From the NCBI RefSeq assembly GCF_054482595.1, contig NZ_CM137008.1: DNA of 64,000 bases; one strand, given 5' to 3'. Below, piece after piece: positions 28,286 to 60,687 of the stretch (within the stretch, counting starts at the first letter, position 1; every line of letters begins with the position of its first letter). The position numbers were made by a program, and so were the translations under genes. The notes below the pieces were generated by a model. That model had not been told where the DNA came from. It did not search any database and was given only the letters and a program-made list of their open reading frames with translations.

Positions 28286-29506
28286 ATGAAACGTGCAGTG
28301 ATTACTGGCCTGGGCATTGTTTCCAGCATCGGTAATAACCAGCAGGAAGTCCTGGCATCTCTGCGTGAAGGACGTTCAGGGATCACTTTCTCTCAGGAGC
28401 TGAAGGATTCCGGCATGCGTAGCCACGTCTGGGGCAACGTAAAACTGGATACCACTGGCCTCATTGACCGCAAAGTTGTGCGCTTTATGAGCGACGCATC
28501 CATTTATGCATTCCTTTCTATGGAGCAGGCAATCGCAGATGCGGGCCTTTCTCCGGAAGCTTACCAGAATAACCCGCGCGTTGGCCTGATTGCAGGTTCC
28601 GGCGGCGGCTCCCCGCGTTTCCAGGTGTTCGGCGCTGACGCAATGCGCGGTCCGCGCGGCCTGAAAGCGGTTGGCCCATATGTGGTCACCAAAGCGATGG
28701 CATCCGGCGTTTCTGCCTGTCTCGCCACGCCGTTTAAAATTCATGGCGTTAACTACTCCATCAGCTCCGCGTGTGCGACTTCCGCACACTGTATCGGTAA
28801 CGCAGTAGAGCAGATCCAACTGGGCAAACAGGACATCGTGTTTGCTGGCGGCGGCGAAGAGCTGTGCTGGGAAATGGCTTGCGAATTCGACGCAATGGGT
28901 GCGCTGTCTACTAAATACAACGACACCCCGGAAAAAGCCTCCCGTACTTACGATGCTCACCGTGACGGTTTCGTTATCGCTGGCGGCGGCGGTATGGTGG
29001 TGGTTGAAGAGCTGGAACACGCGCTGGCGCGTGGTGCTCATATCTATGCTGAAATCGTTGGCTACGGCGCAACGTCTGATGGCGCAGACATGGTTGCTCC
29101 GTCTGGCGAAGGCGCAGTACGCTGCATGAAGATGGCGATGCATGGCGTTGATACCCCAATCGATTACCTGAACTCCCACGGTACTTCGACTCCGGTTGGC
29201 GACGTGAAAGAGCTGGCAGCTATCCGTGAAGTGTTCGGCGATAAGAGCCCGGCGATTTCTGCAACCAAAGCCATGACCGGTCACTCTCTGGGCGCTGCTG
29301 GCGTACAGGAAGCTATCTACTCTCTGCTGATGCTGGAACACGGCTTTATCGCCCCGAGCATCAACATTGAAGAGCTGGACGAGCAGGCTGCGGGTCTGAA
29401 CATCGTGACCGAAACGACCGATCGCGAACTGACCACTGTTATGTCTAACAGTTTCGGCTTCGGCGGCACCAACGCCACGCTGGTAATGCGCAAGCTGAAA
29501 GATTAA
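28286..29506 (+). CDS. fabB: 3-oxoacyl-ACP synthase I (KAS I)
   Basis: 406-aa [21 protein letters not shown]...; active-site Cys in the SSACATS context. Confidence 0.95.
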
Positions 29507-38261: not shown

Positions 38262-38913
38262 GTTTCAGAATCGGTTAGTGGGCACGATCGTGCTGGTGGC
38301 GCTGGGGGTGATTGTACTTCCAGGGCTGCTGGACGGGCAGAAAAAACATTATCAGGATGAGTTCGCGGCTATCCCGCTGGTGCCGAAAGCGGGCGATCGT
38401 GATGAGCCTGATATGATGCCAGCCGCCACCCAGGCGTTGCCGACGCAGCCGCCGGAAGGCGCAGCGGAAGAGGTGCGGGCAGGTGATGCCGCAGCACCGT
38501 CGCTCGATCCGGCCACTATTGCAGCCAATAACACCGAGTTTGAACCGGAACCTGCACCGGTCGCCCCACCGAAGCCGAAACCGGTGGAGCCGCCTAAACC
38601 AAAGGTTGAAGCACCACCTGCGCCGAAGCCAGAACCGAAGCCGGTCGTGGAAGAAAAAGCTGCACCGACGGGTAAAGCCTATGTTGTGCAACTGGGTGCG
38701 CTGAAAAATGCCGATAAAGTGAATGAAATTGTCGGTAAGCTGCGCGGTGCCGGTTATCGGGTTTATACGTCGCCATCCACGCCAGTGCAGGGTAAAATTA
38801 CCCGTATTCTGGTTGGGCCGGATGCCTCGAAAGATAAGCTGAAAGGTTCGCTGGGTGAGTTGAAGCAACTTTCTGGCTTAAGTGGCGTGGTAATGGGCTA
38901 TACGCCGAATTAA
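38251..38913 (+). CDS. dedD: Cell division protein DedD (SPOR domain)
   Basis: GTG start preceded by AGGAG; 220 aa, N-terminal membrane helix, Pro/Ala/Lys/Glu-rich linker, C-terminal SPOR-like region; overlaps the folC end by 11 nt. Confidence 0.85.
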   Translation: MASKFQNRLVGTIVLVALGVIVLPGLLDGQKKHYQDEFAAIPLVPKAGDRDEPDMMPAATQALPTQPPEGAAEEVRAGDAAAPSLDPATIAANNTEFEPEPAPVAPPKPKPVEPPKPKVEAPPAPKPEPKPVVEEKAAPTGKAYVVQLGALKNADKVNEIVGKLRGAGYRVYTSPSTPVQGKITRILVGPDASKDKLKGSLGELKQLSGLSGVVMGYTPN

Positions 38914-38918
38914 TACGG

Positions 38919-39295
<377 letters not shown>

Positions 39296-39372
39296 CGCAA
39301 AGGCATAAAAAGTCGATGGCGTTGAATATTTTTTCAGCGCCATTTTTATTGATGCGCGGGAAGGAAATCCCT

Positions 39373-39388
39373 ACGCAAACGTTTTCTT
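39373..39388 (+). promoter_or_regulatory. PurR box upstream of the cvpA-purF operon
   Basis: ACGCAAACGTTTTCTT matches the PurR operator consensus (ACGCAAACGTTTTCNT). Confidence 0.65.
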
Positions 39389-39444
39389 TTTCTGTTAGAA
39401 TGCGCCCCGAACAGGATGACAGGGCGTAAAATCGTGGGACACAT

Positions 39445-39933
39445 ATGGTCTGGATTGATTACGCCATAATCGCGGTGATTGCTTTTTCCTCTCTGGTTAG
39501 CCTGATCCGCGGCTTTGTTCGTGAAGCGTTATCGCTGGTGACATGGGGTTGTGCTTTCTTTGTTGCCAGTCATTACTACACTTACCTGTCAGTCTGGTTT
39601 ACGGGCTTTGAAGACGAACTGGTTCGAAATGGGATTGCCATCGCGGTACTGTTTATCGCTACCCTGATCGTTGGTGCTATCGTGAACTTCGTGATAGGCC
39701 AGCTGGTGGAGAAAACGGGGTTGTCAGGCACCGATCGGGTGCTGGGCGTCTGTTTCGGTGCGTTGCGCGGTGTGTTGATTGTTGCTGCCATTCTCTTCTT
39801 TCTCGACTCCTTTACCGGGGTGTCGAAAAGCGAAGACTGGAGCAAATCACAGCTGATCCCGCAGTTCAGTTTTATCATCAGATGGTTTTTTGATTATCTG
39901 CAAAGCTCGTCAAGTTTCTTGCCCAGAGCGTAA
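39445..39933 (+). CDS. cvpA: Colicin V production membrane protein
   Basis: 162-aa membrane ORF immediately upstream of purF. Confidence 0.88.
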   Translation: MVWIDYAIIAVIAFSSLVSLIRGFVREALSLVTWGCAFFVASHYYTYLSVWFTGFEDELVRNGIAIAVLFIATLIVGAIVNFVIGQLVEKTGLSGTDRVLGVCFGALRGVLIVAAILFFLDSFTGVSKSEDWSKSQLIPQFSFIIRWFFDYLQSSSSFLPRA

Positions 39934-39969: not shown

Positions 39970-41487
39970 ATGTGCGGTATTGTCGGTATCGCCGGTGTTA
40001 TGCCGGTTAACCAGTCGATTTATGATGCCTTAACGGTGCTTCAGCATCGCGGTCAGGATGCCGCCGGCATCATCACCATAGATGCCAATAACTGCTTCCG
40101 TTTGCGTAAAGCGAACGGGCTGGTGAGCGATGTATTTGAAGCTCGCCATATGCAGCGTTTGCAGGGCAATATGGGCATTGGTCATGTGCGTTACCCTACG
40201 GCTGGCAGCTCCAGCGCCTCTGAAGCGCAGCCGTTTTACGTTAACTCCCCGTATGGCATTACGCTTGCCCACAACGGCAATCTGACCAACGCTCACGAGT
40301 TGCGTAAAAAACTGTTTGAAGAAAAACGCCGCCACATCAACACCACTTCCGACTCGGAAATTCTGCTTAATATCTTCGCCAGCGAGCTGGACAACTTCCG
40401 CCACTACCCGCTGGAAGCCGACAATATTTTCGCTGCCATTGCTGCCACAAACCGCTTAATCCGCGGCGCATATGCCTGTGTGGCGATGATTATCGGCCAC
40501 GGTATGGTTGCTTTCCGCGATCCAAACGGGATTCGTCCGCTGGTACTGGGAAAACGTGATATTGACGAGAACCGTACAGAATATATGGTCGCTTCCGAAA
40601 GCGTAGCGCTCGATACGCTGGGCTTTGATTTCCTGCGTGACGTCGCGCCGGGCGAAGCGATTTACATCACTGAAGAAGGGCAGTTGTTTACCCGTCAGTG
40701 TGCTGACAATCCGGTCAGCAATCCGTGCCTGTTTGAGTATGTATACTTTGCCCGTCCGGACTCGTTCATCGACAAAATTTCCGTTTACAGCGCGCGTGTG
40801 AATATGGGCACGAAACTGGGCGAGAAAATTGCCCGCGAGTGGGAAGATCTGGATATCGACGTGGTGATCCCGATCCCGGAAACCTCGTGTGATATCGCGC
40901 TGGAAATTGCGCGTATTCTGGGCAAACCGTACCGCCAGGGCTTCGTTAAAAACCGCTATGTTGGCCGCACCTTCATCATGCCGGGCCAGCAGCTGCGTCG
41001 TAAGTCCGTGCGCCGTAAACTGAATGCCAACCGCGCCGAGTTCCGCGATAAAAACGTCCTGCTGGTCGACGACTCCATCGTCCGTGGCACCACTTCTGAG
41101 CAGATTATCGAGATGGCACGCGAAGCTGGCGCGAAGAAAGTGTACCTCGCCTCGGCGGCACCGGAAATTCGCTTCCCGAACGTTTACGGGATTGATATGC
41201 CAAGCGCCACGGAGCTGATCGCTCACGGTCGTGAAGTGGATGAAATTCGCCAGATCATTGGTGCTGACGGTTTGATTTTCCAGGATCTGAACGATCTAAT
41301 CGAAGCCGTTCGCGCTGAGAACCCGGACATTCAGCAGTTTGAATGCTCGGTGTTCAACGGCGTATACGTCACCAAAGACGTTGATCAGGGCTACCTCGAT
41401 TTCCTCGATACTTTACGTAATGACGACGCCAAAGCGGTGCAGCGCCAGAACGAAGTGGAAAATCTCGAAATGCATAACGAAGGATGA
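39970..41487 (+). CDS. purF: Amidophosphoribosyltransferase
   Basis: 505-aa ORF beginning MCGIVGI (Ntn glutamine amidotransferase catalytic Cys after Met). Confidence 0.95.
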
Positions 41488-41581: not shown

Positions 41582-42151
41582 ATGAAACGACTTATTGTGG
41601 GCATCAGCGGTGCCAGCGGTGCGATTTATGGCGTGCGCTTATTACAGGTTCTGCGCGATGTCACAGATATCGAAACGCATCTGGTGATGAGCCAGGCGGC
41701 GCGCCAGACCTTATCCCTCGAAACGGATTTTTCCCTGCGCGAAGTGCAGGCGTTAGCCGATGTCACGCACGATGCGCGCGATATTGCCGCCAGCATCTCT
41801 TCCGGTTCTTTCCAGACGCTGGGGATGGTGATTTTACCCTGTTCAATCAAAACCCTTTCCGGCATTGTCCATAGCTATACTGATGGCTTACTGACCCGTG
41901 CGGCAGATGTGGTGCTGAAAGAGCGTCGCCCGTTGGTGCTCTGCGTGCGTGAAACACCATTGCACTTAGGTCATCTGCGTTTAATGACTCAGGCAGCAGA
42001 AATCGGTGCGGTGATTATGCCTCCCGTTCCGGCGTTTTATCATCGCCCGCAATCCCTTGATGATGTGATAAATCAGACGGTTAATCGTGTTCTTGACCAG
42101 TTTGCGATAACCCTTCCTGAAGATCTCTTTGCCCGCTGGCAGGGCGCATAA
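41582..42151 (+). CDS. ubiX: Flavin prenyltransferase UbiX
   Basis: 189-aa ORF MKRLIVGISGASGAIYGVRLL... Confidence 0.92.
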   Translation: MKRLIVGISGASGAIYGVRLLQVLRDVTDIETHLVMSQAARQTLSLETDFSLREVQALADVTHDARDIAASISSGSFQTLGMVILPCSIKTLSGIVHSYTDGLLTRAADVVLKERRPLVLCVRETPLHLGHLRLMTQAAEIGAVIMPPVPAFYHRPQSLDDVINQTVNRVLDQFAITLPEDLFARWQGA

Positions 42152-53315: not shown

Positions 53316-55460
53316 TTACTGCTGCTGTGCAGACTGAATCGCAGTCAGCGCGATGGTGTAGACGATATCGTCAACCAGTGCGCCACGGGACAGGTCGTTA
53401 ACCGGCTTGCGCATACCCTGCAGCATCGGCCCGATGGAGATCAGGTCGGCAGAACGCTGTACCGCTTTGTAGGTGGTGTTACCGGTGTTCAGATCCGGGA
53501 AGATGAACACGGTAGCGCGACCTGCAACCGGAGAGTTCGGCGCTTTGGATTTCGCAACGTCAGCCATTACCGCAGCGTCGTACTGCAGCGGACCGTCGAT
53601 CATCAGGTCAGGACGTTTTTCCTGCGCCAGACGAGTTGCTTCGCGAACTTTTTCTACGTCGCTACCTGCACCAGAAGTACCGGTGGAGTAGGAGAGCATA
53701 GCAACGCGCGGTTCGATACCGAAGGCTGCAGCGGAATCAGCGGACTGAATCGCGATTTCTGCCAGCTGTTCTGCGGTCGGATCCGGGTTGATCGCACAGT
53801 CACCGTAAACGTAAACCTGTTCCGGCAGCAGCATGAAGAACACGGAAGATACCAGGGAGCTGCCCGGTGCAGTTTTGATCAGCTGCAGCGGCGGACGGAT
53901 GGTGTTTGCGGTAGTGTGAACAGCACCGGAAACCAGACCATCAACTTCATCCTGTTCCAGCATCAGCGTACCGAGCACCACGTTGTCTTCCAGCTGTTCG
54001 CGGGCAACGGTTTCGGTCATGCCTTTGTTCTTACGCAGCTCGACCAGACGACCAACATAGCTTTCGCGAACCACTTCTGGATCAACGATTTCAATGCCTG
54101 TACCCAGTTCTACACCCTGAGACGCTGCAACACGGTTGATCTCTGCCGGATTACCCAGCAGTACGCAAGTTGCGATACCACGTTCAGCACAGATAGCGGC
54201 TGCTTTAACGGTACGCGGTTCGTCACCTTCCGGCAGTACGATACGTTTGCCCGCTTTGCGCGCAAGTTCAGTCAGCTGATAACGGAACGCTGGCGGAGAC
54301 AGACGACGGCTGCGCTCAGAAGTGGCAGTCAGAGAATCGATCCAGTCAGCGTTGATGTAGTTAGCAACGTATTCCTGAACTTTCTCGATACGCTCGTGAT
54401 CGTCAACTGGAACTTCCAGGTTGAAGCTCTGCAGGCTCAGAGAAGTCTGCCAGGTGTTGGTGTTCACCATAAATACCGGCAGGCCGGTAGCGAAAGCACG
54501 TTCGCACAGTTTAGAAATGCGCGCGTCCATTTCGTAGCCGCCAGTCAGCAGCAGGGCACCGATTTCTACGCCGTTCATGGCAGCCAGGCAAGCGGCAACC
54601 AGCACGTCAGGACGGTCTGCGGAAGTCACCAGCAGAGAACCGGCACGGAAGTGCTCCAGCATGTGCGGAATGCTGCGTGCGCAGAAAGTGACGGATTTAA
54701 CGCGGCGAGTATTGATGTCGCCTTCGTTGATGATGGTCGCATTCAGGTGGCGAGCCATATCGATCGCACGAGTCGCGATCAGGTCAAAGCTCCACGGCAC
54801 AGCGCCGAGAACCGGCAGCGGGCTGGATTCTTGCAGCTTCGCCGGATCAACATTGTTTACTTTAGCTTTGGAAGAGTCGTCGAAAATCTCGGACAGATCC
54901 GGGCGAGTACGACCCTGTTCATCAACCGGTGCGTTCAGTTTGTTAACGATAACGCCGGTGATGTTGGTGTTTTTGGCACCGCCGAAGCTGTTGCGGGTCA
55001 GTTCGATACGCTCTTTCAGCTGTTCCGGGGTGTCAGTGCCCTGAGACATAACGAAGACGATTTCCGCATTCAGCGTTTTAGCGATTTCGTAGTTCAGAGA
55101 CTGGGCAAACTGGTGCTTACGTGTCGGGACCAGACCTTCAACCAGAACGACTTCAGCGTCTTTGGTGTTAGCGTGGTAGTTTGCGACGATCTCTTCCATC
55201 AGCACATCTTTCTGATTGCTGGAAAGCAGACCTTCAACGTAGCTCATTTTCAGCGGTTCAGCGGCCGTCGTAGTGGAAGAGTTCGCACGTACGATAGTCG
55301 TAGTCTGATCGGGCGCATCGCCACCGGTACGCGGCTGAGCGATAGGTTTGAAAACGCTCAGACGAACGCCTTTGCGTTCCATTGCACGGATCACGCCAAG
55401 GCTGACGCTGGTCAGACCGACGCTGGTTCCGGTAGGGATCAGCATAATAATACGGGACAC
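53316..55460 (-). CDS. pta: Phosphate acetyltransferase
   Basis: 714-aa ORF from GTG start ([17 protein letters not shown]...). Confidence 0.95.
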
Positions 55461-58854: not shown

Positions 58855-60687
58855 GTGAACGGTGAATTGATTTGGGTTCTTTCATTACTGGCCGTTGCCA
58901 TCGTCTTGTTTGCGACGGGCAGAGTGCGTATGGATGCGGTCGCTTTGTTTGTTATTGTCGCGTTTGCATTAAGCGGAACGCTGACAGTCCCAGAAGTATT
59001 TTCCGGCTTTTCTGATCCTAACGTTGTCCTGATTGCCGCCTTGTTTATTATTGGCGATGGTTTGGTCCGTACCGGTGTTGCCACCGTAATGGGAACATGG
59101 CTGGTCAAAGTTGCGGGCAACAGTGAAATCAAAATGTTGGTTTTGTTGATGCTGACCGTCGCGGGGCTTGGCGCGTTTATGAGTTCAACCGGCGTTGTCG
59201 CTATCTTTATTCCCGTGGTGTTAAGCGTTGCCATGCGTATGCAAACGTCGCCGTCACGTCTGATGATGCCGTTAAGTTTTGCCGGGCTGATTAGCGGCAT
59301 GATGACGCTGGTGGCGACGCCGCCGAACTTGGTAGTCAATAGTGAATTGCTGCGTGAAGGCTATCACGGCTTCAGTTTCTTTAGCGTAACACCTATTGGC
59401 CTGGTCGTGCTGGTGCTGGGTATTTTGTATATGTTAGTGATGCGTTTCATGCTGAAAGGGGATACCCAGACCCCGCAGCGCGAAGGCTGGACGCGTCGAA
59501 CCTTTCGCGATCTTATCCGTGAATATCGACTGACCGGGCGTGCGCGACGTCTGGCTATTCGCCCCGGATCGCCAATGATTGGTCAACGGTTGGACGATCT
59601 CAAATTACGTGAGCGTTATGGCGCTAACGTCATCGGTGTTGAACGCTGGCGGCGTTTTCGTCGCGTTATCGTGAACGTTAATGGGGTTTCTGAATTTCGC
59701 GCGCGTGACGTTTTGCTTATTGATATGTCTGCGGCTGATGTCGATCTCCGGCAATTTTGTAGTGAGCAATTGCTGGAGCCGATGGTACTGCGCGGCGAGT
59801 ATTTTTCTGACCAGGCCCTTGATGTGGGCATGGCAGAGATTTCATTAATTCCTGAGTCAGAACTTATTGGTAAATCGGTGCGCGAAATTGGTTTTCGTAC
59901 CCGCTACGGACTGAATGTGGTGGGGCTAAAGCGCAATGGCGTGGCGCTGGAAGGTTCGCTGGCGGATGAGCCTCTGCTGCTGGGCGATATCATCCTGGTT
60001 GTGGGTAACTGGAAACTGATCGGTATGCTGGCCAAACAGGGCCGCGACTTCGTAGCGCTGAACTTACCGGAAGAGGTGAGTGAAGCATCGCCCGCGCACA
60101 GCCAGGCACCCCATGCCATTTTCTGTCTGGTGCTAATGGTGGCGTTAATGCTGACAGATGAAATTCCTAATCCTGTTGCCGCTATCATCGCCTGCCTGCT
60201 GATGGGGAAATTCCGCTGTATAGATGCTGAAAGCGCCTATAAATCCATTCACTGGCCGAGCATTATTTTGATCGTTGGGATGATGCCGTTTGCTGTGGCA
60301 TTACAGAAAACGGGAGGTGTCGCGCTGGCGGTGAAAGGGCTGATGGACATTGGCGGTGGTTACGGGCCACATATGATGCTGGCTTGTTTGTTTGTCTTGT
60401 CGGCGGTTATTGGGCTGTTTATCTCTAATACCGCGACGGCGGTGTTGATGGCTCCGATTGCGCTGGCTGCTGCCAAAACGATGGGGGTGTCGCCTTATCC
60501 ATTCGCGATGGTCGTGGCGATGGCAGCATCCGCCGCCTTTATGACACCGGTTTCTTCACCTGTTAACACACTGGTTTTAGGTCCGGGAAATTACAGCTTC
60601 AGTGACTTTGTGAAGTTGGGGGTACCGTTCACCATTATCGTGATGGCGGTTTGTGTGGTGATGATCCCGATGCTGTTTCCGTTTTGA
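58855..60687 (+). CDS. yfbS: Putative anion transporter with central TrkA-C domains
   Basis: 610-aa ORF: membrane halves flanking a soluble central region. Confidence 0.85.

Follow-up and report, generated by a model that had tools for sequence, protein, structure and literature searches.

Is the 16-nt sequence ACGCAAACGTTTTCTT in front of cvpA (positions 39373-39388, + strand, of the 64,000-nucleotide stretch of DNA analysed here, hereafter the window) a working operator of the purine repressor PurR, and how does it control the genes downstream? The original prediction described it as a near-perfect PurR operator about 55 bp upstream of cvpA, consistent with purine repression of a cvpA-purF-ubiX transcription unit. 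The evidence assembled below makes it about 97% probable that the box is the classical operator of purF (cvpA-purF-ubiX) in the pur regulon, at which PurR bound to its corepressor represses cvpA, purF and ubiX.

The cvpA-purF-ubiX locus

The window belongs to the E. coli chromosome. A 2.2-kb stretch of it was matched in 5425 of 5426 complete genomes, with one chromosomal copy in each, and the genes over this stretch are annotated as cvpA and purF in the matching genomes; the identities of the downstream genes cvpA, purF and ubiX come from RefSeq annotation on 100% identical DNA. The gene order is dedA-accD-folC-dedD, cvpA-purF-ubiX and argT-hisJQM. PurF catalyses the first committed step of de novo purine synthesis. 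The features of the locus are collected in Table 1.

Table 1. Features of the cvpA-purF-ubiX control region and operon, in window coordinates.
Feature	Position	Strand	Basis and remarks
Terminator-like hairpin and T-run	39315-39344	+	Sequence scan
PurR operator (PUR box) ACGCAAACGTTTTCTT	39373-39388	.	Sequence, published motif, conservation
Candidate weak -35 hexamer ACGCAA	39373-39378	+	Position of the -10 and start site; 17-bp spacing
Extended -10, TGtTAGAAT	39393-39401	+	TG at 39393-39394; hexamer TAGAAT at 39396-39401 (-13 to -8)
GC-rich discriminator GCGCCCC, 7 nt	39402-39408	+	Sequence; 92% conserved across Enterobacterales
cvpA transcription start site, +1 (G)	39409	+	Published map; 5'UTR 39409-39444, 36 nt
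cvpA, 162 aa, operon gene 1	39445-39933	+	ORF, annotation
purF, 505 aa, amidophosphoribosyltransferase	39970-41487	+	ORF, annotation
ubiX, 189 aa, operon gene 3	41582-42151	+	ORF, annotation; one transcription unit in PMC3159470

In published in vitro transcription with the sigma-70 holoenzyme, cvpA, purF and ubiX gave similar ratios and the operon was preferentially transcribed by this holoenzyme (PMC3141248). When a terminator-like site was looked for in the purF-ubiX gap, none was found, and this together with the like behaviour of the three genes in vitro fits a single cvpA-purF-ubiX unit. Upstream, the hairpin listed in Table 1 probably ends the folC-dedD unit and insulates the cvpA promoter.

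The dedD-cvpA intergenic region is filled by four tandem 91-bp REP/BIME units (38921-39280) that are 98% identical to each other. It measures 531 bp here and 258 bp in K-12, which is exactly the difference of three units, K-12 having a single one in a different strain background. Three of the units matched naRNA4 (RF02564, a REP-derived nucleoid-associated RNA) above the gathering threshold on the + strand, at 38976-39046, 39067-39137 and 39158-39228. These lie upstream only, and in the Rfam scan of 38800-39700 no family fell over the PurR box or the 5'UTR; a riboswitch or sRNA reading of either element was rejected on this result. In an in vitro run-off microarray, the region upstream of cvpA also gave transcripts of the opposite orientation to cvpA, again preferentially by the sigma-70 holoenzyme (PMC3141248), and the corresponding K-12 probe, IG2428784_2429041, covers about 39188-39444 of the window.

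Match to the PurR consensus

The box agrees with the perfect palindrome ACGCAAACGTTTGCGT at 14 of 16 positions. Its left half, ACGCAAAC, is the consensus, whereas the right half, GTTTTCTT, carries two mismatches (G13 to T and G15 to T); the reverse complement of the whole box reads AAGAAAACGTTTGCGT. The central core AAACGTTT occupies 39377-39384, with the CG step at 39380-39381 and AAA and TTT on its sides. In PurR-DNA structures, the hinge helices contact the minor groove at the CpG step of the operator. The box and the ATG of cvpA at 39445 are separated by 56 nt, in line with the predicted distance of about 55 bp.

When the 64 kb were searched for sites with up to three mismatches to the palindrome, the cvpA box alone was found. 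With up to two mismatches, 0.03 sites are expected per window. A weight matrix was then built from 26 published ChIP-chip motif sites, from which the cvpA box and the other listed site lying in the window had been omitted. With this matrix, the box scored 21.7 bits and ranked first in the window, the next unrelated site reaching 13.3 bits. Genuine PurR sites (n = 26) range from 12.1 to 24.7 bits, so that the cvpA box falls in their upper half. The near-perfect operator of the original prediction is thereby borne out.

How far could chance account for such a match without any regulatory role? Sites with up to two mismatches were present in 3 of 100 dinucleotide-preserving shuffles of the window, a point in favour of chance, and the p value from sequence alone is about 0.003-0.03 per window, which is of modest significance. 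On the other side, none of 300 windows simulated with a first-order Markov model reached 21.7 bits (maximum 21.66), the box stands exactly at -36 to -21 in the promoter of the first gene of the purine pathway, it does not vary in about 5400 E. coli genomes or across at least 20 genera, and binding has been published by both ChIP and EMSA. In view of the promoter position, the conservation and the binding reported in print, chance is an untenable explanation, and we regard its probability as negligible.

The second and third matrix scores of the window were 13.3 bits for ACGAACGCCTTTGCGT (55362-55377) and 12.4 bits for ACGGCGACGTTTGCAT (59239-59254). Both lie below the mean maximum of the simulated windows (15.3 bits) and are most likely chance matches. 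With the same matrix, no second PUR box that might serve looping or cooperativity was found above 10.6 bits within 5 kb of the cvpA box. PurR is not known to share the tetramerisation and looping of LacI.

A further sequence of the window, ACCAAAGCGATGGCAT, is the motif that was given to a weak 'fabB-mnmC' PurR ChIP peak, with a log2 value of 0.97 (Cho et al., 2011; PMC3159470). It is found at 28688-28703, about 400 nt within the fabB coding sequence and outside the fabB-mnmC intergenic region, and scores 10.3 bits, far under the typical maximum of a random 64-kb sequence (mean 15.3 bits). As a PUR box it is probably spurious.

Published binding and regulation

The comparison with published PurR sites that had been proposed as a check gave an exact result: the PurR ChIP-chip data of Cho et al. 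(2011) give AAGAAAACGTTTGCGT as the motif of cvpA-purF-ubiX, at 2,428,842-2,428,857 in the older K-12 numbering (Table 1 of PMC3159470). The corresponding peak reached a log2 value of 1.77 with adenine and was undetected without it, and purF is listed among the genes of the IMP pathway that are repressed by PurR-hypoxanthine (PMC3159470). In addition, purified PurR shifts a cvpA-purF fragment from -171 to +56 in EMSA (PMC5829826), cvpA-purF is a member of the PurR-controlled Pur-1 iModulon (PMC8376909), and cvpA has been described as 'repressed by PurR' (PMC9501238). The control region of the window, about 150 bp between the last REP unit and the start of cvpA and including the 16-mer, is the same as in K-12 MG1655 at every base. 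The proposed purine repression of cvpA-purF-ubiX is thus supported by the ChIP-chip motif, the EMSA and the iModulon, and the opposite case, a lack of PurR-dependent regulation, is contradicted by PMC3159470, PMC5829826 and PMC8376909. Since both binding by PurR and regulation have been described for the same sequence in K-12, this is a known operator and raises no new question. Its value here is that of a positive control, in which a textbook operator was recognised from raw sequence with exact coordinates.

The purF operator has been a model for the biochemistry and structure of PurR since the 1980s. The primary footprinting and mutational work on it is said to be that of Makaroff and Zalkin in 1985 and of Rolfes and Zalkin in 1988, and in the classical literature mutation of the central CG reportedly abolished the PurR footprint or signal, while purine repression was reportedly lost in a purR mutant. 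A PDB search returned several PurR crystal structures, including 1PNR, 1QPZ and 1WET, and one published structure names, in its title, a complex of PurR, guanine and the purF operator.

A different possibility is that a paralogous repressor of the LacI/GalR family, for example RbsR, shares the cvpA box, so that regulation would not be purely PurR-dependent. The neighbours of PurR in the PDB are RbsR and CcpA, RbsR being the nearest paralogue (9ny7, E = 4.6e-95), and the centre of the box is AAACGTTT, a core common to many LacI-family operators. However, the outer positions (ACGC...) are consensus positions specific to PurR, the dependence of occupancy on adenine fits PurR with its corepressor, and the literature retrieved shows no other regulator at cvpAp. 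Sharing with a paralogue is therefore very unlikely, and we retain PurR as the regulator that acts at this box.

The operator overlaps the core promoter

The cvpA start site was mapped by Kim et al. (2012) with 240 reads and a 36-nt 5'UTR (PMC3415461, supplementary file 2), and the sequence from -50 to +1 given there, GGAAGGAAATCCCTACGCAAACGTTTTCTTTTTCTGTTAGAATGCGCCCCG, is the same in the window, which places +1 at 39409. The PurR box therefore extends from -36 to -21, with its centre at -28.5, and the published K-12 coordinates of the ChIP motif and the start site (2,428,821) give the same offset (2,428,842 - 2,428,821 = 21). This refines the earlier reading of the box: besides lying upstream of cvpA, it shares bases with the core promoter.

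The hexamer of the extended -10 element ends 7 nt before +1, and the arrangement is that of a sigma-70 extended -10 promoter. The -35 region is poor, with 2-3 of 6 positions in agreement; the hexamer ACGCAA, which agrees with TTGACA at 2 of 6 and should be the weak -35 element, lies entirely within the operator. A scan of 38900-39600 for consensus sigma-70 promoters found none, because the promoter combines a weak -35 with an extended -10. The box thus lies where PUR boxes are expected, in the promoter of a nucleotide-metabolism unit and over or between the -35 and -10 elements; PurR sites are usually found between these two elements (PMC3159470).

As for the mechanism, a PurR dimer (LacI/GalR family) carrying hypoxanthine or guanine would bind the 16-bp imperfect palindrome and cover the -35 region plus the upstream two-thirds of the spacer of the sigma-70 extended -10 promoter. 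PurR bends its DNA site, with the hinge helices entering at the central CpG, to a degree comparable with that given in the literature. The bound and bent operator would keep RNA polymerase off the promoter, a block at initiation such as is usual where a PUR box stands between -35 and -10 (PMC3159470), and when purines are abundant cvpA, purF and ubiX would be repressed. Judging by the position of the box, steric occlusion of the -35 region should be the means of repression.

Conservation within E. coli

The sequences around the box are nearly invariant in the species. Of 5425 E. coli genomes, 5371 share at least 99% identity over the 165-bp control region; over the 2.2-kb stretch, which takes in coding DNA as well, identity is 95-99% in nearly all of them. 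A 36-mer from the box to the -10 (39366-39401) is 100% identical in 5404 of the 5425, and an exact 28-mer across the PurR box is kept in 5420 of the 5425 genomes bearing the locus, from which it follows that at most five genomes have a change inside 39374-39393.

Conservation across species

Species-representative genomes were scanned by means of a degenerate pattern that covers cvpA codons 1 to 7 and is blind to the operator, and the 300 nt upstream of each cvpA locus were scored for a PUR box. At least 120 loci were obtained. The sample consists of species whose CvpA starts with MVWIDYA; Salmonella, Klebsiella, Yersinia and Vibrio are absent among the matches listed. The boxes of other species are given in the minus-strand reading.

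Among the matches listed, 42 loci were Enterobacteriaceae-like (Escherichia, Citrobacter, Enterobacter, Kluyvera, Kosakonia, Pluralibacter, Cedecea, Pantoea, Shimwellia, Siccibacter and others), and 41 of these carry exactly AAGAAAACGTTTGCGT, the remaining one having a T to A variant, at 55-58 nt from the ATG. All six Morganellaceae listed (Morganella, two Proteus, Providencia and two Arsenophonus) have ACGAAAACGTTTGCGT or ACAAAAACGTTTGCGT at 53-56 nt, and all seven Aeromonas listed have ACAAAAACGATTGCGC or a variant ending in GCGG at 36 nt. No box above 9.6 bits was found within 300 nt upstream of cvpA in the 25 Shewanella loci among the matches listed, nor in those of Colwellia, Idiomarina, Pseudidiomarina, Rheinheimera, Psychrosphaera, Thalassotalea and Zobellella. 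The ceiling of 9.6 bits in the Shewanella, Alteromonadales-type and Zobellella loci is below the largest score obtained with shuffles (16.6 bits). Among the matches listed, the PUR box upstream of cvpA is clade-restricted, to Enterobacteriaceae, Morganellaceae and Aeromonas. Examples among loci L003-L122 are L003, L011 and L021 (Shewanella) and L006 and L012 (Colwellia), all without a box, and L015 and L023 (Aeromonas), both with one.

When 43 distinct upstream sequences from Enterobacterales were aligned, conservation was 99.0% in the box, 99.7% in the remaining spacer, 99.6% in the -10 hexamer and 91.6% in the discriminator, with flanks on both sides conserved at about 80%. Box, spacer and -10 hexamer form one uninterrupted conserved block, and conservation by itself therefore does not tell constraint on the operator from constraint on the promoter. 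Within the Enterobacteriaceae-like species sampled, the two non-consensus bases of the right half, T at -24 and T at -22, are as invariant as the consensus ones.

The continuity of this block and the invariance of the two non-consensus bases would both be expected if the 16-mer were conserved only as part of the promoter (-35 and spacer), its likeness to a PUR box being incidental and PurR inactive here. Against this, the hexamer that would be preserved is a poor -35, and a ChIP-chip peak with the exact motif, its dependence on adenine and the EMSA shift by PurR all document binding. Moreover, the variants of Morganellaceae and Aeromonas stay on or approach the PurR consensus (ACGAAAACGTTTGCGT reaches 24.7 bits), a drift expected of an operator and not of a -35 element. 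Conservation as a promoter part only is thus extremely unlikely, and the box is best read as a PurR operator embedded in the promoter. The small additions made here to what was known of this operator are the map of its presence and absence by clade and the finding that the half-site with the two mismatches varies as little as the consensus one.

Comparison with other operators

The boxes of purT, purMN, purL, purHD, purC and purEK have in common with the cvpA box the 16-bp palindrome ACGNAAACGTTTGCNT and a position over the -35 and -10 elements or between them, and they too mediate repression by PurR carrying hypoxanthine or guanine. The cvpA box differs from the other promoter boxes by two half-site substitutions (AAGAAAAC for ACGNAAAC, minus strand) and in that its occupancy was seen only when adenine was added, while PurR was found on purC, purMN, purT and purEK in its absence as well (PMC3159470). 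The operators of purB, purR and carAB P1 use the same repressor and 16-bp motif. However, those of purB and purR are situated within transcribed or coding sequence, where they act as a 'roadblock' to elongation (PMC3159470), whereas the cvpA box acts at initiation, and the PUR box of carAB P1 is distal, at -128.5, and cannot repress alone, in contrast to the overlap with the core promoter seen here. More generally, the cvpA box resembles the operators of the LacI/GalR family (lacO, RbsR and CcpA cre sites) in being a palindrome of about 16 bp with a central CG, bound by dimeric helix-turn-helix repressors. PurR differs in that it requires a corepressor for binding and not an inducer for release.

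The discriminator of the cvpA promoter is rich in GC. Promoters that ppGpp/DksA inhibit typically have a discriminator of this kind, and that of cvpA could have this role. A literature search on the cvpA discriminator and ppGpp returned only the post-translational inhibition of the PurF enzyme by ppGpp, and no effect on the promoter. Four observations, namely the invariant T at -24 and T at -22, the better palindrome of Morganellaceae, the occupancy with adenine only and the conserved GCGCCCC, led us to consider that the threshold of this promoter is tuned. The operator would then have a submaximal affinity under a dual constraint, in a promoter responding also to ppGpp/DksA, and the first committed step would have a derepression point of its own. 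We consider this unlikely, although conceivable, and if true it would refine a known system and not add a new one.

A last observation concerns one of the two Arsenophonus loci, that of the endosymbiont of Aleurodicus floccissimus (L057, match at 3061-3080, minus strand), in which the cvpA frame has only 56 codons and possibly represents a pseudogene of a reduced genome. Even so, the PUR box ACGAAAACGTTTGCGT, with a perfect score of 24.7 bits, is kept 55 nt upstream of this cvpA, presumably because the promoter still serves purF.
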